DNA of 64,000 nucleotides from Candidatus Doudnabacteria bacterium (GCA_963840645.1 CAWIZL010000002.1:209663-273662), one strand, 5' to 3'; counted from the stretch's first letter, positions 4,319-59,318 are shown. Translations and numbers: made by a program. The notes: generated from the letters alone by a model not told the origin.

Positions 4319-6336
<2,018 letters not shown>

Positions 6337-6403
6337 CCCGTCTGATTTGACGTTGTGCGCGCGGCGGCATTCCCGCGCCGTGCACCCCTATTTTTTAAGG
6401 CTC

Positions 6404-6432
6404 TTGACAAACATTTCAGCCTCGAATATACT
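6404..6432 (+). promoter_or_regulatory. Sigma70-type promoter upstream of the 23S-5S rRNA locus
   Basis: TTGACA (6404-6409), a 17-nt spacer, TATACT (6427-6432), preceded by an A/T-rich tract. Confidence 0.6.
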
Positions 6433-7541
6433 CTCAACAGACTTGAATTTGAACGAGAAAAGCGTAGGTCAAAAGGTTAGCAAAAACCGTAAGATTCCCT
6501 AAAGATTCTTAGCAAAACGCACATGTTTACTTCCACATTAACACCAGAAAAGAGCGGCAGCTTCTAGCCACACATTTTACTGTGTACCTAGCAGCCGCTA
6601 CTGAGCGGTTTTTTGTTGGTTCAGGAACCTTTCAAAATTGTTGTCACATACTTACTGCCCAGGCCAGTATTTACTCGGGTCGAATTAGGGCAGTAGCTAC
6701 GTGATCGCAATACAGCACGACAATAGGCAGTCAACCAGGCGAGCGACACACTGCACATTAACAATTCAATAGTGGCAATCTAGCAGTTGAACGATCAACC
6801 CAACTGTATAGATATGTAAATTCATTGTTAGTGAACAAAGTCCAAATCACCATAAGATTCTAGTGTACAGAAAGCATTCGTCTAACGAGATTGCAGTTGT
6901 AAATTGCTAGTCAAGTTAAGAAGAATTAAAACAGAGAAGGGTATGCGGTGGATGCCTTGGCAATGTCAGCCGATGAAAGACGTGACAGCCTGCGATAAGC
7001 TCCGGGGAGGTGGCAGTAACCTATGATCCGAAGATTTCTGAATGGGGAAACCCACGCACGTGAAGCGTGCGTGCCAATGCACAGAGGTGTGCGTTGTGCG
7101 GGAACCGTGTGAAGTGAAACATCTCAGTAACACCAGGAAAATAAATCAATCTGTCGCAAGACAGGCGAGATTCCCTAAGTAGTGGCGAGCGAACGGGGAA
7201 AAGTAAAGTTATTTATATGATTGGATCCTATAGTTGGGTTCAGTCGATATAGGTAATCTTTCAGCCTAAACTATCCATGTGTTTGTTGTACGCAATACAA
7301 TTATTAAAGCTTACAGGCGTTGCATGGGTAGTGTAACAAGAGGGGTTGTGCGCTGCTGTAGAAGCGCGGAGGTACATTCAAGTGTTTAGCAGAACACGCC
7401 TGGAAAGGCGGACCAAAGAGGGTGATAGTCCCGTATCGCGAAAAACCATGCAATATTCCTAACTTTTTCTTAAGTACAACCAGACACGAGAAATCTGGTT
7501 GGAAATCGGGTCGACTAAGATCCAAGGCTAAATACTCATAT

Positions 7542-7582
<41 letters not shown>

Positions 7583-8264
7583 CACCCCGGAAGGGGAATG
7601 AAATAGTATCTGAAACCGTATACTTACAAGGAGTGGAAGCCCGTAGCAGTGTTTACACTGCTGGGTAACCGCGTGCCTATTGAAGAATGATCCAACGAGT
7701 TAATCTTATACGTGCTTATTAAGCCTTATCAAAGGCGAAATCGTAGTGAAAGCGAGGATGAATAGTCCGCATTAAGAGAATAGTTGATAGTTAGTAGTTA
7801 ATAGCTGGGGATTGTGCGCAGCAGACCGTTGCAATGCCGTCTATTAACTACTAACTATTAGCTATTACTCTTAAATGTCGCATGAGTTAGACCCGAAACC
7901 CAGTGAGCTACTCATGGCCAGGATGAACGTTATGTAAAAGTAACGGGAGGTCCGAACCCACTATTGCTCGCAAAAATAGGGGATGAACTGTGAGTAGGGG
8001 AGAAATTCCAATCGAACTGGGTGATAGCTGGTTCTCCTCGAAATAGCTTTAGGGCTAGCGTCAGATGTTCCCTTGAGAGGTAGAGCACTGAATGGAAACC
8101 TGCTGCGCAAGCGGTAGTCTCCAACCAAACTCCGAATTCTAAAGGTCAAGAGTCTGGCAGTCAGTCCGTGAGGTCTAAGCTTCACGCGACAAATGGAGAA
8201 GAATCCACACCATCGTCTAAGGCCCCCAAATCCTAGCTATAGTGCAAAGGATGTGGGATTGCCC

Positions 8265-8301
<37 letters not shown>

Positions 8302-8997
8302 TAAAGAAAGCGTAACAGCTCACTGGTCAAGCGATCCTGCGCCGACAATATATAGGGGCTAAGCTAGGTGCCGAAGACATGGATTGGCTCGACTTCATTG
8401 CGAGTCAGTGGTAGAGGAGTGTTCTGTACAGCGCTGAAGCGGTATGCGTAAGCGGCCGTGGACGTGCACAAGCAAGAATGTTGGAATAAGTAATATATAT
8501 AGAGGTGAGAATCCTCTTCGCCGAATATCCAAGGTTTCCAGGGCAACGATCGTCGTCCCTGGGTTAGTCGATCCTAAGAGTGGGCCCCAAGGGGTCCACC
8601 CGATGGAAAATACGGTTGATATTCCATAACCACTTTACAATTATCTAAGGCGGAACGCATCATGATAGCGCTGGCGTCATCTGACTATTGGCGTTGTTGT
8701 CTTGTAGGATGAGTTCCAGGCAAATCCGGAGCTCCTATGTTTTGTATATCTACCTCGCAAGAGATGAGATGCAAAACTGTAAATCTCGAAGAGTGCGAAG
8801 AAATCCTGGCAACGGGGATTGGCGTGAATCAAGGTGTCAAGAAAAACGTCGTAGTCACGTTATATGGTGACCGTACCGTAAACCGACACAGGTGGATGGG
8901 GAGAGAATCCCAAGGCGTCCGGATCAATGTTCGTTAAGGAACTCGGCAAAATAAGCGGTCGTACCTTCGGTATATGCCTGACCTTTCATATGCTGGG

Positions 8998-9365
8998 TTG
9001 TGGGTTAAATTAAATGTGAGTGTGCGACTTCATAGCTACAACGGTGGAGGTTCCTCCACTGGGTAAAATCAGGAGGTCGTAGGTTCGATCCCTACTAGTC
9101 GCGCCAAATTGAAGTTGGAAGAATTCACAAGTCTGTACGTTCTCTGTCAATCCTCCGCGGCGGATGAGCGAAAGATTTCGGATTCTGGGAAACGTTGTGT
9201 CGATGCACCCGTCGTTCACTTGCAACAAGACTGAACAGAGATGCTGTCATGCACTGCTTCGTTTATCTACAGAGAGTGGTGTAGCCGCTCATAGCGGCAT
9301 ACCACTCTCAACCACTCGGTCGGACTGGCTGTGATTCTCCCGAGTATAGAACCATCCATCCACTA
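8998..9365 (+). other. About 370-nt expansion segment or intervening sequence inserted at the tip of 23S helix 63
   Basis: It is closed by CATATGCTGGG (8987-8997) pairing with CCCAGCATAT (9366-9375). It lies between the conserved GGAACTCGGCAAA and CGACTGTTTACC blocks. It contains GNRA-capped hairpins and a tRNA-like module. Confidence 0.6.
9024..9106 (+). other. tRNA-like module (acceptor stem, degenerate D-arm, canonical T-arm, encoded CCA) embedded in the 23S expansion; not a canonical tRNA
   Basis: GCGACTT (9024-9030) pairs 6/7 with TAGTCGC (9096-9102), followed by G-CCA. The T-arm is GTAGG-TTCGATC-CCTAC (9079-9095). A D-arm remnant reads TAGCTACAACGGTGGAGG. There is no 5-bp/7-nt anticodon arm; instead there is a CCTCC/GGAGG stem with a 14-nt loop, or alternatively a GTGGAGG/CCTCCAC hairpin. 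Confidence 0.5.
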
Positions 9366-9540
9366 CCCAGCATATTAAAGGCCCGCAGCGAAAGATCTCT
9401 CCCGACTGTTTACCAAAAACTTAGGTCCGTGCTAAAGCGCAAGCTGATGTATACGGGCTGATGCCTGGCCAGTGTCAGAAGGTTAAACCGGTGTGGCGCA
9501 AGCCTCGGCTCAAGCCCTGATGAACGCCGGCAGTAACTAT

Positions 9541-10280
9541 GAACAATTGTAGTTATAAAATTTGGCTATTTGCGGGGATCTCTGTGCACACATGTTTCGT
9601 CATGAGGTGCTTAAAGCTGGTAGTACTCGTCTGAAATATGACAGTAAAAATCTATCAGATACAGACAATCCGCAGGGAAGATTCACTGAAAAGATCCATA
9701 CAAGGAGAATAATATATGGATCAAAGTTGGCTCAAAGAGATTCCGACAGAAAAAGGTTACTACTTTGCAGGTTTCGTAGATGGAGAAGGTAGCTTCAACG
9801 TTTCATTACGTAAGCGATCTGATCATGCAGTACACTGGCAAATAATTCTAACCTTCAATGTCTCCCAGCGCGATCTTGTCGTTTTGTCTCAAATGAAAAA
9901 ATATTTGGGATGCGGCAGGTTATTCGCTAGGAAAGATGGTGTGAACTGTTACATAGTTCAAAACCCATCTGCAATCCAGGAAAGGATTATTCCTTTCTTC
10001 AAGCGGTTTCCTTTTTTATCCGCTAATAAAAAAAAGAACTTCTCGATCTTTGTCCAAATTGCAGATTTGGTCAGCAGCAAGCAGCATCTTACAGAAGATG
10101 GCCTGCGAATCGTTCATTTAAGAGAAAAGCTAAATGAAGGTAAAGGTAGGAAGCGCAAGTACAACTTATCAGATTATTTAGGATCTGACAGCGAAAACCC
10201 TCAACGACTACACGCCGAACGCCAAGAAATTGGTGATGATATAGTCTGATCTGCACGGAGACGTGCAGCAAACACACATG
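9541..10280 (+). mobile_element. Group I intron in 23S rRNA at the E. coli-equivalent site 1917, carrying a LAGLIDADG homing-endonuclease ORF
   Basis: The 5' exon ends ..AACTAT (U at -1). The internal guide GTAGTT (9549-9554) pairs with AACTAT. Core elements are P ATTTGCGGGG (about 9568), Q AATCCGCAGG (about 9667), R TCAACGACTACACG (10201) and S GATATAGTC (about 10238). The intron ends ..CACATG (terminal G). Removing it restores GTAACTAT|AACTGTCC. Confidence 0.8.
9716..10249 (+). CDS. LAGLIDADG homing endonuclease (single-motif, I-CreI-like homodimer type), intron-encoded
   Basis: Contains KGYYFAGFVDGEGSFNVSL (LAGLIDADG motif) and ..IIPFFKRFPFLSANKKKNF. The C-terminal codons run into the intron R/S core. 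Confidence 0.9.
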   Translation: MDQSWLKEIPTEKGYYFAGFVDGEGSFNVSLRKRSDHAVHWQIILTFNVSQRDLVVLSQMKKYLGCGRLFARKDGVNCYIVQNPSAIQERIIPFFKRFPFLSANKKKNFSIFVQIADLVSSKQHLTEDGLRIVHLREKLNEGKGRKRKYNLSDYLGSDSENPQRLHAERQEIGDDIV

Positions 10281-10294
10281 AACTGTCCTATGGT

Positions 10295-10604
10295 GGAAGG
10301 AATTCCCTTTGCCCTCGCAAGAGAGGCAAAGGTTTAGCCGCCTTAGTAAAATTTGGCCATTTGCTGGAAACCCTGAGTATGTCATGGTACTCGTTGCTGT
10401 TGATTTAACAGCAACAGTGAAAATCCATGAACGCAGACAATCAGCAGGAAAGACTGGCTAAGAAATTAGCCAGAATCCTCAACGACTATACGCCAAACGC
10501 TAATAAATGATTAGTGATGATATAGTCTAAGCTGCATGGCGACATGCAGAGTACGACAGAAATGATCGTACCTTGACTTGACAAAAGTCATGTAATATGA
10601 CCTC
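10295..10604 (+). mobile_element. Second, ORF-less group I intron, homologous to the first, at the E. coli-equivalent site 1931; the 3' boundary is uncertain
   Basis: Core elements are P ATTTGCTGG (about 10359), Q AATCAGCAGG (about 10437), R TCAACGACTATACG (about 10479) and S GATATAGTC (about 10519). The internal guide GCCTTAG (10340-10346) is complementary to CTAAGGT (the exon reads CTATGGT). TTTAGC (10333-10338) pairs with the 3' exon GCGAAA. The nucleotide before the AGCGAAATTCC exon is C, not the canonical G. Confidence 0.65.
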
Positions 10605-11203
10605 AGCGAAATTCCTTGTCGCGTAAGTTGCGACCCGCACGAATGGCATAACGAGTAGAGGACTGTCTTGACGAACAACCCGATGAATTTACAGTGGCGG
10701 TAAAGATGCCGTCTGCCCGCAACAAGACGGAAAGACCCTATGAAGCTTTACTATAGCGTGTCATTGGAATAAGGTTTTGGCTGTTTAGAATAGGTGGGAG
10801 ACTTTGAAGTGCTGCTCTGGCAGTAACTGAGTCGCAAGGTGAAATACCACCCTGTCGAAATTTTGTTTCTAACCTTGGTTTAACCTGCCAGGGAACAGTG
10901 GCTCGTGGGTAGTTTAACTGGGGCGGTTGCCTCCTAAATGGTAACGGAGGCGTTTATTAAGGTAGGCTAAACGCGGATGGAAATCGCGTTGATAGTGCAA
11001 ACGCATAAGCCTGCTTGACTGCAAGGCCAGCGAGCCGCGCAGGTACGAAAGTAGAAGTTAGTGATCCGATGCGTTAGAGTGGAATACGCAAAGCCCAACG
11101 GATAAAAGTTACTCTAGGGATAACAGGCTGATCCGTCTCCAAGAGTCCACATCGACGACCGGGTTTGGCACCTCGATGTCGGCTCATCACGTCCTGGGGG
11201 TGA

Positions 11204-11240
<37 letters not shown>

Positions 11241-11802
11241 TGGTACGCGAGCTGGGTTCAAAACGTCGTGAGACAGTTTGGTCCTTATCTGTTGTGGGTG
11301 TACGAAACTTGAGTGGGCACATCTCTAGTACGAGAGGACCAGATGTATGGACCTCTGGTGTACCCGTTGTCCTGTCAAGGGCATAGCGGGGTAGCTAGGC
11401 TCAGTTCAGATAAACGCTGAAGGCATATAAGCGTGAAGCTGTCCACAAAACTAGGTTTCGTTGTGCAGCGATGCACGATAGATTCGCAGAAGACTACTGC
11501 GCACATAGGTTGCAGGTGTAAGCACAGCAATGTGTTCAGCCGAGCAATACTAATCAATCGAAAGTTTTAATTCTTTTTGACTAGCAATTTGCGCTTGTAA
11601 TACAGCGTGATTGTTGGCCGAAGAATTTCTGGGCATACTAGAATACGTCTTTGTTGCATAACAATTTACATTGTTTTCGCCGAAAGGTGAGAACATGCCA
11701 CTATGGTTTGATACAATTCGAAGGTGAATGCCTTCTGAACTTTCAGAGAAACCGCATCCAAAATCCGAATAATTTTGGCTAGCGCACGTTTCCCTGCAGG
11801 TT

Positions 11803-11917
11803 TAGGTGGCATTTACGGCGCGGTCCTGACCTGATCCCATCCCGAACTCAGTAGTCAAACGCGTTCGTGCCGATGATAGCTGGGCTTATGTCCATGCAAA
11901 AGTAGGTAGCCGCCTCT
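11803..11917 (+). rRNA. rrf: 5S rRNA
   Basis: TAGGTGGC...CCTGATCCCATCCCGAACTCAG...GTGCCGATGATAGCTGGG...AGTAGGTAGCCGCCT. The terminal helix pairs. The ends are accurate to a few nt. Confidence 0.85.
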
Positions 11918-11925
11918 ATCACTGA

Positions 11926-11950
11926 AGATCCCTGAAAAGGGGTCTTTTTT
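11926..11950 (+). terminator. Intrinsic terminator of the rRNA locus
   Basis: AGATCCC-TGAAAA-GGGGTCT followed by TTTTT. Confidence 0.7.
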
Positions 11951-12493
11951 GTGCTCCCCAATTTTGATAATTTATAAAGGAGCATCCGCCGAAGCCTTGG
12001 CGAAGGTGGATGAAGTTGGGTGAGGGTGAGCTTGTGGATAATAAGTTTGACGTTGCCCTTTGGTAGGTAGAAAATACCGGTGAGATGGTTTCGTTTGAAG
12101 GAGGCTTCCATGTCGTCGGCTCCACGGCCTACTCTTGCACACGTAGCAGAGGTGGGTTCTTTCGAAAGAATTAGCGAAAAGACCAACATTCAAGTAGTTT
12201 GGGAAAAGGGCGGTCAGATGGTTCTGTTCGTGCGTTCCGCGAGCTACACCGAGTGTCGATGCACAGTTGTTCAAGCTGGACTGCCGCACCTGCTTTCCAC
12301 GAGGACAGCGTGGGTGAACAGGCGCTGCATTCTTGTTGCGGACAGTGGAGTTTTAACGCTCGCCTTTGAAGGGCTTGGTTCAGAAATCGCGGGCTTGCTG
12401 GCCAAACAGGGGCCCAGTAAGAATTGTTTGAAGAAACTAGGGCTGGCGCACGCAAGTGTCGCCAGCCCGTATTAATTGGTGTAAACTTAGTTA

Positions 12494-13762
12494 ATGAAAA
12501 CGTACTTTGACTTTGAAATTCACTCGCGGTACGCGCGAGCATGCTCGCCGCAGCTCACACTGCCAAACATTGCTGCGTGGGCAGCACGCAAGGGCGTGAA
12601 CGTCATTGGCACTGGCGACTTCACGCACCCAAAGTGGTTTGCAGATATATGTGAGCAGCTCGAAGAAGACGGCAGTGGTTTGCTCCGCTTGCGCAAAGAG
12701 TTTGCCATTGCGCCATCGCACACAAAAATTCGCTTCATTCTGTCGTCTGAGGTGTCGTGCATCTACAGGCACAGTGACCGCACGCGCCGCATCCACAACC
12801 TGCTGCTCGCGCCATCCATTGCAGTGGTCGGGAAAATAATTGGCAGCCTCAGCGCAAGAGGTGCAAAGCTGGCTTCAGACGGCAGGCCAATTCTCGGCAT
12901 GTCTTCAAAAGAGGTGCTGCGCCTGGTGCTCGAAGCTTCGCCTGAGTGCATGCTCATTCCAGCGCACGTGTGGACTCCGTACTTTGGGCTGTTCGGCTCA
13001 ATGAGCGGGTACGACAGCGTTGAGGAGTGTTTTGAAGATTTGTCGCCGCACATTTACGCGCTCGAGACTGGCCTTTCAGCAGACCCAGAAATGTTCTGGC
13101 GCATCTCAAAGTTTGACCGCTTCACGCTCGTGTCGTGCTCTGACCCACACTCGCTGCCGCGCATCGGACGCGAGTGCAACAGGCTCGACCTGGCACCTGG
13201 CGACTTCACGTACGCAGAGCTCACGCGCATTGTAAGAGAGCGCGACAGGAAAAAGTTTTTGGCAACGGTTGAGTACTGGCCAGGCGAAGGCCGCTACCAC
13301 TACGATGGCCACGCAGCGTGCAAGGTATCGCTGCATCCTGACCAGACAAAAAAGCTGAAGGGGGTTTGTCCGGTGTGCGGAAAGAAGCTGACCATTGGTG
13401 TGCTGTCGCGCGTGCTAGAGTTGGCTGACCGTCCAGAGGGCTACGTTTTGAAAGATGCAATCCCGAGCAGGCACTTCGTGGTGCTCGAGGAAATTATTGC
13501 GGACGCACTGGGTATTGGTGGCGTGAGCAGCAAAAAAGTTCAGGCAGAGTACGTGCGCCTCACCGATGCGCACCCAGAGTTTGAAATTTTGTTTGATTTA
13601 GACGAGGCAGGTTTGCGCAGCGCAGCACCTGCTGAGATTGCAGACTCGATTCTGCAGATGCGGCTAGACCACGTTGAGGTCACGCCAGGCTACGATGGCG
13701 AGTACGGCAAGGTGAAAATGCTGCGCGAGAAAAAGAAGAAAAAAGCAGCGACGCTGTTCTAA
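12494..13762 (+). CDS. Endonuclease Q family protein (PHP domain plus C-terminal zinc finger)
   Basis: FDFEIHSRYARACSP, GTGDFTHP, LIPAHVWTPYFGLFGS, LETGLSADP, SCSDPHS, GEGRYHYDGHAACKV, CPVCGKKLTIGVLSRV. Confidence 0.8.
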   Translation: MKTYFDFEIHSRYARACSPQLTLPNIAAWAARKGVNVIGTGDFTHPKWFADICEQLEEDGSGLLRLRKEFAIAPSHTKIRFILSSEVSCIYRHSDRTRRIHNLLLAPSIAVVGKIIGSLSARGAKLASDGRPILGMSSKEVLRLVLEASPECMLIPAHVWTPYFGLFGSMSGYDSVEECFEDLSPHIYALETGLSADPEMFWRISKFDRFTLVSCSDPHSLPRIGRECNRLDLAPGDFTYAELTRIVRERDRKKFLATVEYWPGEGRYHYDGHAACKVSLHPDQTKKLKGVCPVCGKKLTIGVLSRVLELADRPEGYVLKDAIPSRHFVVLEEIIADALGIGGVSSKKVQAEYVRLTDAHPEFEILFDLDEAGLRSAAPAEIADSILQMRLDHVEVTPGYDGEYGKVKMLREKKKKKAATLF

Positions 13763-13805
13763 AAGTTGCTACTGTGGTACAATGGTTTTGTAGGGAGGAT
13801 TTTGC

Positions 13806-14180
13806 ATGAAACGAGTTTTCGCCGCTTTGTTTTTTGTAGCAGTAGCGCAGGCACAGGATGCCAAAGAGCCGACACAGGCTCTGAGCACAGCCACGCAGGC
13901 GCCGCTGCCAACATTTTCCGTCAGCGAAGAAATGGCAAATTTTTCATTTCGGTGCAAGGGGAAAGCCAAGCCGCGCGGGCTGGCGAAGCTATTCAGTTTC
14001 GGCACCCGGTACCAGGCCCCAACAATTCGGGAACCAAAGTTTCGGCCGTTCTCAACAGTCACCATTGTGACGCGTAAGCTCGGATCGTTTGAAGCATCTG
14101 CCCAGAGCGTCACTCGGTCTCGCCGAGGGTACGATGAAGTTACACGATCAGAGGCTTCGGTGACGTGGAGGTTCCACTGA
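13806..14180 (+). CDS. Hypothetical small, basic, secreted protein (weak call)
   Basis: A GGGAGGA Shine-Dalgarno lies 7 nt upstream of the ATG. The N-terminus MKRVFAALFFVAVAQAQD looks like a signal peptide. A TGGTACAAT extended -10 is at 13775-13783 and a terminator at 14207-14241. Composition is atypical (R/K-rich). Confidence 0.4.
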   Translation: MKRVFAALFFVAVAQAQDAKEPTQALSTATQAPLPTFSVSEEMANFSFRCKGKAKPRGLAKLFSFGTRYQAPTIREPKFRPFSTVTIVTRKLGSFEASAQSVTRSRRGYDEVTRSEASVTWRFH

Positions 14181-14206
14181 GGTCGCTGCAAAACTACAAA
14201 ACACTG

Positions 14207-14241
14207 GGCTGCACAGCCCCCAAGCCGTGCAGCCTTTTTTA
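14207..14241 (+). terminator. Intrinsic terminator
   Basis: GGCTGCAC...GTGCAGCC followed by TTTTTT. Confidence 0.7.
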
Positions 14242-14267
14242 TTTCATTTGCCCCGTCTTGACAAAAA

Positions 14268-14276
14268 TGCTAGAAT
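14268..14276 (+). promoter_or_regulatory. Extended -10 promoter element (TGCTAGAAT) upstream of tRNA-Ser
   Basis: TGCTAGAAT lies 22 nt upstream of the tRNA 5' end. The same motif class recurs at 18640, 26714, 49445 and 61064. Confidence 0.45.
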
Positions 14277-14298
14277 CAACAATGTTAGCAACGTATCT

Positions 14299-14388
14299 GG
14301 AAGGGTCGCATAGCGGTCTAGTGCACGCGCTTGGAAAGCGCGCAAGGGGTCAAACCCTTCAGGAGTTCGAATCTCCTCCCTTCCGCCA
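14299..14388 (+). tRNA. tRNA-Ser (anticodon GGA), long variable arm, CCA encoded
   Basis: Acceptor GGAAGGG/CCCTTCC. Anticodon arm CGCGC-TTGGAAA-GCGCG. Variable arm GGGGTCAAACCCTTC. T-arm GGAGTTCGAATCTCC. Ends GCCA. Confidence 0.9.
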
Positions 14389-14397
14389 AACAACTAC

Positions 14398-16221
14398 ATG
14401 ACACACGGAACCATTGAGGAAGTGAAAGAGCGGCTCAACATTGTTGATGTCGTTTCTTCGTATGTCCCGCTCAAGCGAGCTGGCACGTACTACCGGGCGA
14501 ACTGTCCTTTCCACAAGGAGAAGACGCCATCTTTCGTGGTGTCGCCGAACCGCCAGTTCTGGCACTGCTTTGGGTGCGGCAAGGGCGGCGATGTGATTGC
14601 CTTTGTGATGGAGTACGAAAATTTAGAATTCAAAGAGGCACTTAAAATTTTAGCTGAACGAGCGGGCGTTGAGCTGCCAAAGTACACGCCACAGGAAGCA
14701 TCGCGCGAAGAGGCTGAAGATCGTGAGCGACGCAGGCTGCTAGAGGTTAACGATCTCGCGGCAAAGTTTTACGCAAAAATTTTAGAAGGCTCGCAGGTTG
14801 GCGCTGGCGCGCGCGAGTACTTGCGCAACAGAAAGCTCACGTCAGAAACCGTGCGCGAGTGGCAAATTGGCTACGCGCCGCAAGAAGATTCAAACGTGCT
14901 TGAAACATTTTTAGAGAAGCGAGCGTACACAGAGCAGGAAGCAATTGCCGCAGGTGTCAGAGGCCGCGCGCAGAGCGGCAGAACGTACGACAGGTTCTTT
15001 GGACGCGTCACGTTCCCAATTCGCAGCTACACAGGCGACGTAGTTGGCTTCACGGCTCGCGTGCTAGACAAAGATGCGAAAGCTGCAAAGTACATCAACA
15101 CCTCAGAGACAAAAGTGTACAGCAAGGGCAAGGTAATTTTTGGACTGTACCAGGCAAAGCAGGCAATCCGCGCAGAGGACTGTGCTGTTGTCGTTGAGGG
15201 CAACATGGACGTGATCACAGCGCACCAAGCTGGGTTTAAGAATGTGGTGGGTTCTTCTGGAACAGCATTCACGCCAGAGCAGCTGCGCGTGCTCTCTCGC
15301 CTGACGCGCAACTTAAAGTTTTGTTTTGATACTGACGCAGCTGGCGTTGCAGCCACGCGTCGAACGCTGGACCCTGCGCTGCAGCAGGGGTTCACTGTTT
15401 CCATTGTGCAAATAGTAGGGGCAAAAGATCCTGATGAACTCATTTTGAAAGATGCAGCAGCTTTCGCGAAAGCTGTGAAGGATGCGCCGCTCTACATGGA
15501 CTACTTTTTCGACAAAGCCTTTGCAGGCTACGACCCGACGAGCGTTGTGCAGAAGAAAAAAATTGCAGCAGAGCTCATCCCGCTCTTGCACCAGCTGTCA
15601 GACCCGCTGGAGCTCGCGCACTACGTGCGCATAATGTCGCAGCGGTTTGCCGTCCCAGAGAAGGCAGTGTACGAGCTCATCCAGAAGCTGCGTTCAAAAG
15701 AAAGGACTGTGCGACAGCAGACTGAGCAGCAGCCAAAGGAGCAGCCTGTCGCAACTTCTGCAATGAAGCGGTCAACGTACCTAGAGCCGAAAGTTTTGGG
15801 CTACGCGCTGTTCAGAGATTCGTGCCTGAGGGCTATCTCAGAAAAGGTCGAGCCTGCCACGTTTACAGGTGTCCAGCTTGCAAGAATTTACGGGCAGTTA
15901 TTGGCAGCAGCCGGAGGCGGTGCATTCAGTGCAGATGCGTTCATTGCATCGCTCCCACGTGAAGACGCAGAGGTTGCTAAAATGGCACTTTTTGTGGTAG
16001 AATCTGAATACAGTACAGAGGGTGCGCAGTCCGAGAATAGCTTTGAGAGAGAGTTTGCGCGCGCGGTCAATGAGCTGCTCAGCCACCACCTCAAGGCGCA
16101 GATGGATGCAGTTCTGGCTGACATGGTCATTGCAGACCGTGCAAAGGACAAGGTGAAGGTTGCAGAATTGAACCAGAAATTCCAAGAGCTATCAACTAAA
16201 ATTAGGGGGTACTCCGCATGA
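14398..16221 (+). CDS. dnaG: DNA primase DnaG
   Basis: CHC2 zinc finger [41 protein letters not shown] region [27 protein letters not shown]. Confidence 0.95.
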
Positions 16222-17500
16222 AGAAGAAAGTCGCAAGGGCCAAAGCTAAAGGCAGAACGAGGGCAGCAAAAACGTTGCGGCCTAAGTTTAAGCACGCAAA
16301 AAAATCTGTCAAGCGAAGCGTAAAAGCGAAGTCCGCGAAATCCAAGAGCAGCGGTGCAAAGAAGGGTCGCTCAGCAACGCCTGGTGAGTTTGATGCGGCA
16401 ACGCGCAAGGCAGTTGACCACCTCGTGCTCAAGGGCGCAGAGCGCGGCTTTGTGACAGAGGCAGAAATTGTGCACGCGCTGCCTCGCTTTGAGGACAACG
16501 TGCAAGACCTCGAGCGTGTAATGGACGAGCTGGATAAACGCGGCATTGAGGTTGTTGACCCAGAGGTTGCCAGCATTTGGCAGACGCGCGAGACTCCGGC
16601 AGAAGGTGTCACAACTACAAAGGGCAAGAAGAAGAAAGAGGTGCCAGACAACAGCTACGACCTCGGCGATATTTACGATGACTCCATTCAAATGTACCTG
16701 CGCGAAATTGGCAAGGTGCCTTTGATTAACGGTTTGGAAGAAGTTGAGCTGGCAAAGCGCATTACGAAGGGCGACATTGCAGCGCGCAAGAAGCTCACGG
16801 AAGCCAATTTGAGGTTGGTTGTTTCGATTGCAAAAAAGTACATGGGCCGCAACCTGGCCTGCTCGATTTAATCCAAGAGGGGAACATTGGCCTGTTCCGC
16901 GCTGTAGACAAGTTTGACTGGCGCAAGGGCTACAAGTTTTCTACGTACGCAACGTGGTGGATTCGCCAGGCAATTACCCGCGCGCTCGCTGACCAGTCGC
17001 GCACCATCCGCATCCCAGTGCACATGGTTGAGACACTCAACAAGTACGCGCAGGCAGAGCGCCAGCTTGTGCAAGACTTAGGTCGCGAGCCGTTGCCAGA
17101 AGAGATTGCTGCGGAGATGGGCATTGAGGTCTCAAAGGTTTACCACCTGAAGAAAATTTCGCAGGAAACCGTGTCTATTGATTCGGCCGTTGGCGAGGAC
17201 GAGGGCGAGAACGAGTCAACGCTGGGCGACTTCATTGTTGACGATGACACCACGATGCCAGCAGATGCAGCTGGCCGTCAGATTCTGCGCGACTACGTAC
17301 AGGAGATTTTGGCTGACCTCGATCCACGCGAGCAGAAAATTTTGAAGATGCGCTTTGGCCTTGAAGACGGCGTGCAGCACACGCTGGAAGAAGTTGGCGA
17401 AGAGTTTGGCGTGACGCGCGAGCGCATTCGCCAGATTGAGGCAAAGGCAATTGAGCGGATTAAGGAGCATGCAAATATTTCTAAATTGAGAGACTACTAG
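16218..17500 (+). CDS. rpoD: RNA polymerase sigma factor RpoD (sigma-70), with one frameshift at about 16855-16862 (ORF pieces 16218..16871 and 17018..17500) and a Lys-rich basic N-terminus
   Basis: The ATGA start overlaps the dnaG stop. Contains [32 protein letters not shown] / [42 protein letters not shown]...RIPVHMVE, and region 4 [23 protein letters not shown]. Confidence 0.9.
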
Positions 17501-17532
17501 CACAACGGGGGATTCTCTGCGGTGTAAAATAA

Positions 17533-18060
17533 ATGGCAAAGGCTGAGAAAATTAGCTTGGATGAGGCAAAGCAGGACAAGCTGTTTTACTTTGTAGCAAA
17601 CGTGGTGATATACCGACCAGAAGATGGTCGGTGTTTGCTTTTGAAGCGCAGCATGGGCGAGAAAGTTCATCCAGGAAAGTTTGCTACACCTGGTGGCAAG
17701 CTGGAGTGGGATGATTTGGATTTAGACAACCCGACGCGCATGAATGGCGATGTGATTGATTTTGAAGGCCAAGTTGAGAAGCTTTTAGCACGCGAGGTGA
17801 GAGAAGAAGCAGGTATTGAAATTGGTGGTGAGTTGCACTACTTAAACAGTAACGTGTTTGTGAGGCCAGATGGAATTCCTGTCGTATTGGTAAAGTTTGC
17901 TGCAAAGTATGCTGGTGGCAAGGTCGTTGTGGAGCAAGGGGCATTCGACGATTTTAAGTGGGTGAATGGTGAAGAGGCAAAAGAACTAGATTGCATTGAC
18001 GGGGTTCCAGATGAGGTTAAATTGGCGGCCAATAGTTTTAATAAGCATTTGATAAAATAA
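17533..18060 (+). CDS. NUDIX hydrolase
   Basis: Nudix box GGKLEWDD...LAREVREEAGIEI. Confidence 0.85.
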   Translation: MAKAEKISLDEAKQDKLFYFVANVVIYRPEDGRCLLLKRSMGEKVHPGKFATPGGKLEWDDLDLDNPTRMNGDVIDFEGQVEKLLAREVREEAGIEIGGELHYLNSNVFVRPDGIPVVLVKFAAKYAGGKVVVEQGAFDDFKWVNGEEAKELDCIDGVPDEVKLAANSFNKHLIK

Positions 18061-18172
18061 AAAAGACTTGTACTTGCGTACAGAGGTCTGGTGCTTTTCT
18101 GTGGATCGCTACGTCTGGAATTACACAAGTGCCACGCAAATCGTCTATACTGCTCAGTAAAAACAGCTATCG

Positions 18173-18529
18173 CTAGATTAGAATTTTGAGCTCTTCAATC
18201 TTCGTTGTATCCAACCCTGCTTTTTTCAGGAAGCCCACAATTGCGTGAGCGGCATCTTCCCAGGTTTCACCCCAGCCACTAAGAATACCGCCATGGGCGT
18301 ACTCTTGTTCGGCATCATCGAATTTCGTCCAGTCCGTGTATATCTCGGCTGTGTCTTCAGCTTTGAACGAAATGATGACTGTCATTTGTCCTTGGCCAAA
18401 ACGAGTCGTTTGGTTGTAGACCAGGACAATATCGAGGGGGTCGGCATTCTCTACTTCGGTGAGCAGGCCTATTCCCTGCATGCACACGTTCACATGTGCT
18501 AAAAATAAATCTAACCTTGCGCGATCCAT
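18173..18529 (-). CDS. Hypothetical acidic cytoplasmic protein
   Basis: A clean 118-aa ORF in an otherwise empty interval; no family recognised. Confidence 0.5.
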   Translation of the reverse strand: MDRARLDLFLAHVNVCMQGIGLLTEVENADPLDIVLVYNQTTRFGQGQMTVIISFKAEDTAEIYTDWTKFDDAEQEYAHGGILSGWGETWEDAAHAIVGFLKKAGLDTTKIEELKILI

Positions 18530-18694
18530 AAGCCTCCTTTAGCTTAGCCTAGAATTAGGCTATTAATAGTGTAGCACAGTTACTTGCTATTTGTCAATAG
18601 ATATTGTGCAATAAATATGTGTAAAATAGGCCTTATTCATGCTAGAATTACTTTGTATTTGAATCATTCTGAAATCAAAATTATTTCTACAAAC

Positions 18695-19609
18695 ATGGAA
18701 CCAATCAAGAAAATAGGCATTATGGGGCTTGGGAAAATGGGGAAGGGCATTGCTCTGAACCTCATTGACAACGGGTTTGAGGTGCACGCGTTCAACAGGA
18801 GCCCTGAGCCGCTCGCAGAGGTTGTGGCAGCTGGTGCAGTTAAGTCTGAATCGTTGGATGACATGGCTTCGCAGCTCGGCAGCCCACGCGTTGTCTGGTT
18901 TATGCTCACAGCTGGTGGCGTGCTCGATGATGTGCTGAAAACTTCTGGCCTGCTCGACAAGCTTCAGCCAGGCGACATCATCATTGACGGCGGCAACTCA
19001 AACTTCAATGACACTGTGAAGCGAGCAGCAATGTGCAAAGAGCGCGGCATCTTTTTCTTGGACGCTGGCGTGTCAGGTGGGCCTGAAGGTGCACGAAGCG
19101 GTGCAGCAATTATGGTTGGCGGCGAAAAAGAGGCGTACGACAAAGTCGCCCACATCTTCAAAGCCCTCAGCGTTGAGAATGGCTACGGCTACATGGGTGC
19201 CAGCAGGCTCTGGCCACTACGTGAAAATGGTGCACAATGCCATTGAGTACGGCATGCTGCAGGCAATGGGCGAAGGCTACGAGCTCGATCAAAGAGCGAG
19301 CCGTACAAAGACCTCGATTTACGCGAGGTCACAAAAGTTTGGCAGAATGGAACAGTGATCCGTGGCTTCCTCATGGACCTCATGGCTCGCGCGTACGAAA
19401 AGAATCCAACTCTCGAAGGCATCAAAGGGTACATTGAAGACAATGGCGAGGGCAAGTGGGCAGTGCAAACAGCGCTCGATGCAAACGTGCCGTTCGTGCT
19501 CAACACGTACGCCCTCATGTTCCGCTACATTACGCGACAGGACGAGAGCTTTGCAGCGCAGGTTGTGGCATCGCTGCGCCACGAGTTTGGCGGGCACGAG
19601 CTCAAGTAG
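18695..19609 (+). CDS. gnd: 6-phosphogluconate dehydrogenase, short (about 300 aa) decarboxylating type, with two compensating frameshifts (about 19201-19206 and 19287-19289)
   Basis: [23 protein letters not shown] (Rossmann fold), [15 protein letters not shown], then in a second frame [27 protein letters not shown], and back in the first frame [31 protein letters not shown]. Confidence 0.85.
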
Positions 19610-19627
19610 TTAGTATAAGTATTAAGT

Positions 19628-21158
19628 ATGCGGGTACCGATGAAACAGAAAGTATCTAAAATTCGAAAGGACGTAGTGCAGCCAACAATCTTCACGATCT
19701 TTGGCATCACTGGAGATTTGGCAAAGAAGTACCTGCTAGTATCGCTGTACAACTTGTGTGCAGCAGGCGAGCTGCCAGCACAGTTTTACCTGGTTGGCTA
19801 CGGCAGGCGAAAGTGGAGCGACGCTGAGATGAAGGCATTTGTGGTCAAGAGCCTGAAAGGTGCGCTGCCAAAATTTAATTCAAAAATTGCTGGCCGGCTT
19901 CTGAGAAATGCCTACTACGTTGTCGGCGATTTTGCTACGCCTGGTGACTACATCAATTTAAAGAAGTTTTTAGCAAAGCTCGAGCGCGATGCGGGTATGC
20001 ACCTGAACAAGATTTTCTACGTTGCCACAGCGCCGCTGTACTACCCAGAAATATTCAAGCAGCTCGGTTCGCACGGGTTGGCGCACTCCACAAAGCTCGA
20101 GCAGACGCGCATTCTAATAGAGAAGCCATTTGGCACTGATGCAAAGTCTGCTGCCTCCCTCAATAAAATTTTGCACGCGCACTTTACAGAAGAGCAAATT
20201 TTTCGCGTTGACCACTACCTGGGCAAGCTGCCAATCCAGAACATCCTGAGCTTCAGGTTTGGCAACGGCATCTTTGAGAAAATCTGGAACTCGCAGCACA
20301 TAGACAACATTCAGATTTCAGCTGTGATGGAAGACGTTGGCATTGAAGGCCGTGGCGCGTTCTACGATGAGACTGGTGCGCTCCTCGACGTCGTGCAGAA
20401 CCACATTATGCAGGTGGTCGCCCTCGTGTGCATGGATGCGCCATTCAACATGGATGCCGAGTGCGTCAGCGAGCGCAAAGCGCAGCTGCTAAAAAAAGTT
20501 CGCATCTCACAGGATGGACGTGACGTTGTGCGCGGCCAGTACAGTGGGTACACGCGTGAGCAGGACGTGCGCATGAACTCAAACACAGAGACGTTCGTTG
20601 CGCTGAAACTGTTCGTGGATACACCGGCGTTTCGTGGCGTGCCAATTTACATCCGCACTGGCAAGGCGCTCGACCGTCGGTTCACAGATGTTGTCGTGCA
20701 GTTCAAGCAGGACAGCGTCCACTTTTTAGGCAACAAGAAACACGGGATAGATCCTAATTTGCTGAGCATACGCGTGCAGCCAGAGGAGTCTATCTCGCTG
20801 CGCATCATGGTGCGCGAGCCTGGTTTTGAGACGCAGCTCAAGCCTGCGCAAATGGACTTCTGCTACCCGCCCAACGGCGAAGGTGCGTACAGTCCCAGCG
20901 CTTACGAGAAGGTAATTTACGATGCGCTGCACGGTGACCAGGTGTCGCTCGTGCGGTCTGACGTGCTCATGCAGCAGTGGCGCATCGTTGATGCGCTGCA
21001 GAAAAAGTGGCGCAGCTACCCGCTTGAAATTTATAAGCAGGGGAGCGAAGGTGCCTGCGAGCCAGCACAAAGTTTTAGAGCGCGACGGCACGCAGTGGTG
21101 GAGCGAGGCAATGCCGTACTGCCCTGCGCCACCGCAGAAACCAGCGAAGAAAAAGTAG
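19628..21158 (+). CDS. zwf: Glucose-6-phosphate dehydrogenase, with one frameshift near the 3' end (about 21049-21052; the true stop is at 21158, not 21196)
   Basis: FTIFGITGDLAKK, IFRVDHYLGK, DVVQNHIMQ. The C-terminus is restored as ..YKQGSEG / PASQHKVLERDGTQWW. Confidence 0.9.
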
Positions 21159-21160
21159 GC

Positions 21161-22826
21161 TTACTCCTTAACCATGTGGTCCAGCGACCACTGTAAATTC
21201 GATCCAACCTTTTTGCCTGGGTTGAAGATGTTGAGCGGGTCAAATGCAGCCTTCACCTCTTCGAACAGGCCGTAGACCTCTGCCCCGTACATTTGCTTGA
21301 GGAACGGGCTGCGGATGAGGCCGTCGTTGTGCTCGGCAGTTATAGATCCGTGGTAGGCGAGCACGAGGTCGTACACTTTGTTGGAGAGCTCTGTAATAAT
21401 TTCGCGCGTCTTTGGATTTTTGAAATCCATGAGCGGAATAATGTGGAAGTTGCCGTCGCCAACGTGACCTGCGATTGTGTACACAATATCGTACTGCGCA
21501 AGGATCTTATTCAAAGCTGGCAGGAACTCTGGCAGGTGCTCTGGCCGCACAATGATGTCATCAATGAAGGGAGCTGTGCGCGTGCCGTGCATGTGCTTGC
21601 GCAGCAGGCTGAAGCTCTCGCGCCTGATTGTCCAGTACTTCTGTGAATCTTTCTGGTCTGCAATGCGGGTTGGCAGCTTGAAGCGCGCAACAGCGTCTTT
21701 GGCAGCCTGTGTGCGTTTGGCAACCTCAGCAGCATCTTTGCCACGGAACTCTGCCATCAGGATGAGCTTCGGGAAGCCGCCAGTGAGCACCATGCCAACC
21801 TCTGGCAAGAACTGCAGGCCAAGGCTGAAGATGTTCGTTGGCGCCATTATCTTTATGATCTCTGGCAGAAACTTCATGGCCAGCGAAAGCGTCTTGTCAT
21901 CGTACGACTCAAAGCTCTCTGGCTTGAACTGCAGCACAACGTTTACCAGTTCTGCCAGGTGCGTGAGGTCATTTCATGAACACAATGAGCATCTGAGACT
22001 CATTGTCAGGTTCTATGAGCCGGAACTTTATGCGGTCAATAATGCCGAGCGTACCCTGCGACCCAACGAGCAGCTTGTTCATGTTGAACGTGCCAGCAGT
22101 GCGGTCGTACACGTTCCAGAGGTAGTAGCCAGCAGAGTTCTTTGAAACCCTTGGCTTTGCAGACTGAAGCACGTCGTAGTTTTTATCTATGATTCCGTAA
22201 ATTTTTCTGTACAGGTCGCCCTCAAAGCCTTCTTCTCTTAACTTGGTGTCGAGCTGGTTGCGGTCGAGCTGCGTGAAAGTGTGCTCTTTGCCGTCAGCCA
22301 GAACCATTTTCAATTCCTCCACGTAGTTTTCGATCTTCCCGTACGTAAGAGTTTTTTCGCCAGCGCCATTGTTGGCCACTTGGCCGCCAACGGCGCAGAT
22401 CTCGCGCGAAGCTGGGTACGGCGGCAGCAGCAGATTTTTTGCCAAGGTGAGCTTCTCAAAGTCGCGGTAGAAAACGCCTGGTTCAACAACGCCGTAGCCA
22501 ACGCTGGGGTCAGTGTTCTTTACCTCGAGTATGTGGTTGAAGTACTTCAGGAAGTCTAAGATGATGGACGTGTTGAGCGATCCGCCGCTCATGCACGTGC
22601 CAGCTGCACGGGCAGTAATAGAAATGGTGGGGTCAGTTTTCTTGGCTTCGCTCACGAACTGCACAATTTTTTCTATGTCAGCAACTGTCTTCGGGCTGAC
22701 AATGACCTCTGGCTTTATCTCAAACACGCTCGCATCGTGGCTGTAAGTGGTGAGCGTTGCATCATCGAACGTAATGTCGCCGTCGAGGTGCAGGGCTTGG
22801 AGCTTCTCAATTGTTGGTGTTGGCAT
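21161..22826 (-). CDS. FAD-linked oxidase (GlcD/D-lactate dehydrogenase-like, PCMH FAD-binding domain), with one frameshift at about 21970 (ORF pieces 21969..22826 and 21161..21937)
   Basis: The N-terminus VSPKTVADIEKIVQFVSE...ITARAAGTCMSGGS matches FAD_binding_4. The C-terminus reads GHVGDGNFHIIP...GSITAEHNDGLIR. The junction reads ..MLIVFMK / DLTHLAELVNVVLQFKPESF. Confidence 0.85.

Positions 22827-59243: not shown

Positions 59244-59318
<75 letters not shown>

Follow-up and report, generated by a model that had tools for sequence, protein, structure and literature searches.

The 23S rRNA gene in the 64-kb stretch of DNA analysed here (the window) carries an insert of several hundred nucleotides (nt) at helix 63 (H63), and within this insert lies a module that resembles a tRNA in its acceptor stem, T-arm and CCA end, which raises the question of whether we are dealing with a tRNA gene, a signal for RNA processing, a part of the ribosome or the remains of something that is merely carried along. 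The gene is located at 6924-11574 on the + strand (Rfam LSU_rRNA_bacteria, 2102 bits) and spans 4651 nt as compared with the 2925 positions of the Rfam model. A 5S rRNA gene is present at 11802-11918 (Rfam), Rfam finds no 16S gene in the 64-kb window, and tRNA-Ser at 14299 and tRNA-Asn at 59244 are the sole tRNA calls made there by ARAGORN. The 23S gene is flanked by ligA upstream and by an EndoQ-family gene, dnaG and rpoD downstream. As the closest relatives of LigA (55-57% identical) are Patescibacteria, i.e. metagenome-assembled Paceibacteria, Nomurabacteria and other members of this group, the host is, judged by its sequence, a CPR/Patescibacteria bacterium. [quoted passage not shown]

The spacing from the conserved 23S block GGAACTCGGCAAA, which starts at 8938, to the block GACTGTTTACCAAAAAC, which starts at 9404, is 453 nt in the window as compared with 73-75 nt in insert-free relatives (73 nt in L040). 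In an alignment to E. coli 23S rRNA the extra sequence falls between E. coli positions (Ec) 1694 and 1771, an interval that we take to comprise H62 and H63 of the E. coli secondary structure, and this gap agrees with the original prediction, which had placed an insert absent from E. coli at H63. H62 is present in the window 23S as GCGGUCGUACCUUCGGUAUAUGCC. In the insert-free L040 and L046 the H63 region consists of CCUUU, a loop of 9-13 nt and (U)AAGG, and most of H63 is generally missing from CPR 23S genes (PMC9297842). The insert and its parts are:

8982-8986, + strand: 5' strand of the residual H63 stub, CCUUU, pairing with AAAGG at 9377-9381
8987-9376, + strand: the whole H63 insert, ~390 nt, taking the place of a 9-nt loop on the truncated H63
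8988-9005, + strand: 5' side of the closing (basal) stem, AUAUGCUGGGU-U-GUGGGU, which is paired in the minimum-energy fold
9024-9106, + strand (as the 23S gene): tRNA-like module, interpreted as the decayed remains of a cargo tRNA
9042-9061, + strand: 8-bp hairpin in place of the D and anticodon arms, CGGUGGAG-GUUC-CUCCACUG, present in the local and in the whole-insert minimum-energy folds
9272-9309, + strand: long interior hairpin, GAGAGUGGUGUAGCCGCU-CAU-AGCGGCAUACCACUCUC, present in the minimum-energy fold
9357-9375, + strand: 3' strand of the basal stem, ending in AUCCAC-U-ACCCAGCAUAU, paired in the minimum-energy fold

The closing stem pairs A8988-U8998 with A9365-U9375 (11 bp) and is extended by six further pairs, 9000-9005 with ~9357-9363, to ~17 bp. 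A stem-enclosed expansion of ~370 nt had been predicted, and its borders, 8998 and 9365, turn out to be the inner edges of this closing stem. The insert folds far better than shuffled sequences (z = -5.6), has no second copy in the window and gives no Rfam match to an intron or a ribozyme. A group I/II intron was rejected, as no covariance model matches 8985-9380 at E values up to 10 and both introns of the gene lie downstream. The longest ORF of the insert (72 aa) runs antisense over the module and found no homologue in a protein search. The hairpin at 9272-9309 had been given as an example of a GNRA-capped hairpin, but its loop is a CAU triloop; it has a counterpart in the related insert of L060, with which it shares a GAGAGUG/CACUCUC base.

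The module itself is built as originally described. Its acceptor pairs GCGACUU (9024-9030) with UAGUCGC (9096-9102) in six Watson-Crick pairs and one U-U, the T-arm GUAGG-UUCGAUC-CCUAC (9079-9095) consists of a 5-bp stem and a canonical UUCRANY loop, and the discriminator G9103 is followed by an encoded CCA (9104-9106). The D-arm is decayed, its stem having at best two of four pairs, positions A14 and A21 are lost, and an anticodon arm is missing, i.e. there is no 7-nt anticodon loop, the best stem on the anticodon side enclosing 14 nt. The hairpin at 9042-9061 takes up the D-loop GG. Aligned end to end with the Rfam tRNA model (RF00005) the module scores 17.5 bits against a gathering threshold of 29 (E = 0.53 over 4227 families and 792 nt, ~1e-4 for the tRNA family alone). 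ARAGORN does not call it at the default or 90% thresholds and makes only a poor call at 80%, in another register and with a 6-nt loop; the tRNA-like domain of a tmRNA was dismissed, as the tmRNA mode of ARAGORN gives no match even at a threshold of 70%. A scan for the architecture (acceptor with at least six of seven pairs, 5-bp T-stem, TTCRANY and NCCA) returns only the module and two real tRNAs from the window, and it yields three matches in 300 simulated 64-kb windows, i.e. ~0.01 per window and ~6e-5 in 390 nt. When the whole insert is folded to minimum energy (-150.0 kcal/mol), the acceptor stem does not form, its 5' strand being paired elsewhere; a fold in which this stem is forced reaches -143.2 kcal/mol and is less stable by 6.8 kcal/mol, although the local acceptor stem would be at an advantage if the RNA folds during transcription. 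As for the reliability of the sequence, ligA (at 5720), rpoD (16829-16862) and zwf (21024-21052) each contain one frameshift relative to the intact orthologues in L054, which amounts to ~1 frameshift per 3 kb in the essential genes of the window and points to indel errors of the assembly rather than real pseudogenes. Given these frameshifts, individual bases of the module may be in error; its many departures from a tRNA are not explicable by assembly errors.

Related 23S genes provide the strongest support for the origin of the module. A metagenome scan for a 23S block followed 116-146 nt later by GGTTCGAWYCC gave one true match, L051, and three syntenic loci were reached via homologues of EndoQ, namely L054 and L060 (both with 81% EndoQ identity) and L062 (67%). 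The inserts of L051 and L054 contain canonical tRNA genes at the position and in the orientation of the window module: Thr-GGU in L051 (1612-1687 according to ARAGORN; 61.4 bits with Rfam) and Phe-GAA in L054 (5606-5681; 65.5 bits). Each of them is the first interior element of its insert, lies on the 23S strand, encodes CCA and forms a full cloverleaf in the minimum-energy fold of the whole insert. The intact tRNAs at the same site in two relatives, and a score of 17.5 bits that stays below the threshold of 29, support the earlier idea that the module derives from a tRNA and does not serve as a functional tRNA gene.

In the inserts of L060 and L062 no tRNA-like element was detected. Conservation of the acceptor/T-arm pairing in relatives, on which the original prediction had laid weight, is found in part: the pairing is kept in L051 and L054, the 12-bp acceptor/T stack being paired in 35 of the 36 cells formed by the window and these two relatives, but the whole element is absent from L060 and L062. 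Six of the 12 pairs change on both sides across the window, L051 and L054, which is, with three sequences, indicative only. The window retains 11 of the 12 pairs, with four compensatory differences from its intact relatives.

The nested tRNAs have features of their own. The Thr-GGU of L051 has A1-U72, G2-C71 and a G3.U70 pair, the last being the alanine identity pair, and in L002 and L014 the canonical tRNA-Thr genes of CPR bacteria begin with GCCG; the Phe-GAA of L054 has A1-U72 and a C at position 37. In view of these oddities the nested tRNAs may not be charged as their anticodons suggest, and it is uncertain whether they have a decoding function. The isotype from which the window module descends is not evident, as a global alignment to 51 tRNAs from the loci singles out neither Thr nor Phe nor the nested tRNAs, and a derivation from tRNA-Thr was dropped since this alignment does not discriminate. 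The exact 21-mer comprising T-arm and acceptor has no match in the JGI metagenomes, where neither a near-identical copy nor a parent tRNA was found; one 46-nt match over the T-arm was obtained in a phage collection and none in a plasmid collection. On the minus strand the module (9024-9104) matches the Rfam family Plastid-ycf2 5'UTR with 27.5 bits against a threshold of 65.7, as does the reverse strand of the L054 tRNA with 23.3 bits, the model probably overlapping an antisense plastid tRNA gene. YrlA is a bacterial Y-RNA-like family that combines a stem with a tRNA-like domain, and its match in L054 (5556-5661) was discarded, as 13.8 bits against a threshold of 69 (E = 5) is at chance level.

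In the window, L051, L054, L060 and L062 the insert is found at the same point of the 23S gene and on the same core stem, AUGCUGGGU/ACCCAGCAU. This core comprises 9 bp, and AUGCUGGGU is identical in all five members of the family, whereas the adjacent pairs covary (UG/CA in the window and L060, AA/UU in L051 and L054, CG/CG in L062). The basal stem is 17-19 bp long in the relatives. The interiors do not align with one another, and the number of extra nucleotides relative to an insert-free loop varies widely (window ~380, L051 ~530, L054 340, L060 243 and L062 923). No mobility gene was found in the 923-nt insert of L062, which contains no ORF above 80 aa and has no Rfam match. Two members of the family are known from a single contig each, and the L051 contig ends 5 nt past the stem; the L054 locus is present in several samples.

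The comparison of 23S genes in related genomes called for by the original prediction also yielded genes in which the insert is missing. L040 and L041, fetched via the closest homologues of the LAGLIDADG protein of the window (endonuclease 83% identical), have no insert at H63, although their 23S exons are 96-98% identical to those of L054, L060 and L062, and neither has the syntenic outgroup L046. Other routes were less productive: 38 loci from the genomes of relatives were collected via ligA, and an Rfam scan of the eight closest showed no 23S gene; the EndoQ look-ups P0129, P0131 and P0135 gave no usable 23S, the contig of L061 starting inside the intron. Five matches to the basal-stem pattern in viral contigs were rejected as chance. 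In another CPR lineage (L042, 1559-1771; also L043-L045) an unrelated hairpin insert of ~110 nt sits on the same tip of H63, so that inserts may have arisen at H63 more than once in the 23S genes of CPR bacteria.

The history of the family may not simply follow that of its hosts. In the 23S tree of the hosts the quartet is resolved as window with L051 versus L054 with L060 (1000 of 1000 bootstrap replicates; 828 ungapped columns), and L060 is the nearest relative of L054 (93.5% 23S identity). The variants of stem and leader group oppositely, i.e. the window with L060 and L051 with L054, though at few positions only. This conflict in the sequences suggests an exchange of the insert, whole or in part, between lineages, such as has been proposed for classical intervening sequences (IVSs). 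Moreover, L040 is close to L054, L060 and L062, yet free of the insert, and the tRNA is lost in L060 while it is intact in L054, its nearest relative, so that the cargo is dispensable. The family presents its tRNA cargo at three stages: intact, decayed and lost.

We consider the feature to be a sporadic RNase III-type IVS at the tip of a truncated H63, with a dispensable cargo tRNA that has decayed in the window to an acceptor/T-arm/CCA minihelix, and would give this explanation a probability of roughly 0.55. The insert stands in place of the apical part (the 9-nt loop) of a surface-exposed 23S helix, its complementary termini form a long stem (11 + 6 bp in the window), and it occurs sporadically among close relatives with a poorly conserved interior, the same anatomy as in classical IVSs (PMC4990558). 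The family may accordingly be described as one in which the basal stem (17-19 bp) is conserved and covaries, the interior changes fast, and a tRNA just inside the 5' strand of the stem is optional. By analogy, the insert would be transcribed within pre-23S, RNase III would cut the basal stem and free the insert, and the 23S would be left in two pieces that are held together in the ribosome. An intact cargo tRNA could then be matured from the released RNA by RNase P and 3' trimming, in which case the 23S gene would also act as its promoter. The cargo in the window would be a pseudogene, its D and anticodon arms having collapsed into one hairpin, and hence unable to decode; the surviving minihelix might still be cut by RNase P, although this would not be needed for the removal of the insert.

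Several reports are compatible with such a pathway. The RNase III gene rnc is retained by CPR bacteria (PMC12641178), H63 lies on the outer surface where it is accessible to RNase III, and E. coli 23S rRNA tolerates ends made by RNase III at this helix (bioRxiv 10.1101/2024.04.10.588894). According to a passage in PMC9297842 that cites Brown 2015, CPR rRNA insertions are absent from transcripts. Excision as an ordinary RNase III IVS, the outcome that the original prediction had set against a processing handle, is in our view the most likely reading. There are points that fit less well. The decay is uneven, as 11 of 12 pairs, the canonical T-loop and CCA are kept whereas the middle is remodelled to a perfect 8-bp hairpin, a pattern that would also fit continued selection on the minihelix. 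Furthermore, H63 is not a classical IVS site, and the family has five members only.

If selection does act on the minihelix, it could be a processing handle, with cuts by RNase P on the 5' side and by RNase Z or exonucleases on the 3' side fragmenting the 23S at H63, as the original prediction had considered. We regard this as unlikely, even if it has some attraction: the minihelix is near-intact (11/12 pairs, UUCGAUC, NCCA) despite a diverged sequence with 6/12 pairs changed on both sides, the exchange of the D and anticodon arms for a stable hairpin does not resemble random decay, and all three tRNAs or tRNA-like elements encode CCA at the same place. However, a tRNA-like processing element should be conserved wherever its cut is needed, and L060 and L062 share the basal stem without such an element, so that a handle is not required by the family. 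Moreover, the compensatory changes, seen in three sequences only, could all predate the loss of an intact tRNA, the 5' strand of the acceptor pairs elsewhere in the whole-insert fold (6.8 kcal/mol), the hairpin sequesters the D-loop GG on which the tRNA elbow depends, and in its sequence the family shows all the hallmarks of an ordinary RNase III IVS. Equally tentative is the idea of a laterally exchanged H63 element for which the 23S gene would be host and promoter of a tRNA, with maturation of the tRNA coupled to the cut in the 23S; in the window a minimal RNase P substrate would have been kept to drive removal of the insert, which would amount to bacterial tRNA punctuation inside an rRNA.

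We consider it improbable that the insert remains unexcised as an extension of H63 on the solvent side of the 50S subunit, where a tRNA shape on the surface might bind tRNA-recognising proteins. In eukaryotes the expansion segment ES27L emerges from H63, i.e. from the same origin, the insert is strongly structured (z = -5.6), and its 9-bp stem core is conserved in sequence and not in pairing alone. Yet ES27L is retained, conserved within lineages and functional, whereas the insert is sporadic and hypervariable: its presence differs among near-identical 23S genes and its interior ranges from 243 to 923 extra nt, which is unlike a functional part of the ribosome. CPR ribosomes are, in addition, reduced at H63 (PMC9297842), and the passage on transcripts in the same article (citing Brown 2015) has CPR rRNA insertions missing from them. 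That the 23S gene harbours and expresses an unusual but functional tRNA, e.g. one with an enlarged anticodon loop, is very improbable and largely refuted by the sequence: acceptor, T-arm, discriminator and CCA are present and relatives have real tRNAs at this place, but the score (17.5 bits vs 29), the failure of ARAGORN at default settings, the D stem with at most two of four pairs, the 14-nt loop on the anticodon side and the loss of A14 and A21 all speak against it. Chance resemblance or an assembly artefact, for which the ~1 frameshift per 3 kb and the tRNA score below threshold might be quoted, can hardly account for an architecture expected ~0.01 times per 64-kb window and for the same stem at the same site in five independent assemblies, two of them with canonical tRNAs at the homologous position and one locus (L054) seen in several samples.

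An RNase III-type IVS, the preferred explanation, has well-known counterparts in the 23S rRNAs of Salmonella, Leptospira, Alphaproteobacteria and Coxiella burnetii, which are excised by RNase III without religation. In these, likewise, the tip of a surface helix is replaced, the complementary termini form a long stem, the interior is variable and the occurrence among close relatives is sporadic; the IVS of Coxiella, with 444 nt and a 28-bp stem, is of a similar size as the H63 insert (PMC4990558). The insert described here differs in its location at H63 instead of H9, H25 or H45, in its cargo, which is a tRNA gene or its remnant instead of an S23p/IVP ORF or nothing, and in its host, a CPR bacterium, and its excision is putative. 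It also resembles the ORF-less rRNA insertions of CPR bacteria (Brown et al. 2015; Tsurumaki et al. 2024, PMC11270868), which come from the same group of organisms, are no introns, measure a few hundred nt and likewise occur in 23S genes that also bear LAGLIDADG group I introns; the authors suspected RNase III IVSs (PMC11270868). 

tRNA genes next to rRNA are familiar from the spacers of rrn operons, where tRNA-Ile and tRNA-Ala between 16S and 23S are co-transcribed and freed by RNase P and 3' processing while RNase III stems flank the rRNAs. In contrast, the nested tRNA is contained in a helix of the 23S coding region itself, and the 23S-5S unit is unlinked from 16S. tRNA punctuation in mitochondria, the t-elements of plant mitochondria and the mascRNA of MALAT1 also feature a non-decoding tRNA shape with intact acceptor/T-arm in a longer transcript, but there cleavage by RNase P and RNase Z has been demonstrated, whereas here it is a possibility, and members of the present family lack the element. 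The mitochondria of Chlamydomonas reinhardtii have fragmented and scrambled rRNA genes interspersed with tRNA genes. As in our case tRNA genes are found between pieces of rRNA, and tRNA processing and rRNA fragmentation can coincide, but that system is organellar, rearranged and permanently discontinuous, and it has no enclosing stem.

Judged by its sequence features, the H63 insert conforms to an IVS and does not conform to a tRNA gene, a group I/II intron, a tmRNA or an expansion segment of the conserved kind. Its novelty lies in the location at H63 and in a cargo that consists of a tRNA gene or of what is left of one: the literature searched yielded no description of a 23S helix or an IVS that contains a tRNA gene, and the main survey of CPR rRNA inserts never mentions a tRNA (PMC11270868). 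One class of the unexplained CPR 23S inserts thereby gains a defined anatomy, i.e. a conserved H63 stem suited to RNase III and an optional tRNA. If the nested tRNAs are expressed, they would represent tRNA genes inside an rRNA helix, an arrangement that we did not find reported in bacteria, and would couple the maturation of tRNA to that of rRNA in organisms that have few processing enzymes left. There is also a consequence for annotation, as tRNA finders will call genes inside the 23S and 23S models will span them, so that the tRNA counts of these small genomes may err either way.

Some further observations concern the surroundings of the insert. The 23S-5S unit is unlinked from 16S and embedded in the order ligA-23S-5S-endoQ-tRNA-Ser(GGA)-dnaG-rpoD-gnd-zwf (window 4319-21196), which is kept in L054, L060 and L062. 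L054 (9389-10953) and its sister contigs have genes for a DNA methylase and an HNH endonuclease between endoQ and dnaG, which are missing in the window and in L060. Downstream of H63 the 23S gene contains two group I introns (window 9530-10600), located around E. coli positions 1917-1950:

10048-10268: ribozyme core of the first group I intron, 43.7 bits (below threshold), with a LAGLIDADG_1 gene at 9716-10249
10301-10549: second group I intron, 74.7 bits

Homologues of the LAGLIDADG gene number more than 1400 in the 23S genes of CPR bacteria. Two further inserts are found in the 23S gene: the first (window 7199-7397) exceeds 100 nt and lies near E. coli positions 270-300, and the second (window 7768-7879), near E. 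coli position 640, is a long, near-perfect palindrome of ~110 nt that attracts spurious miRNA matches on both strands.
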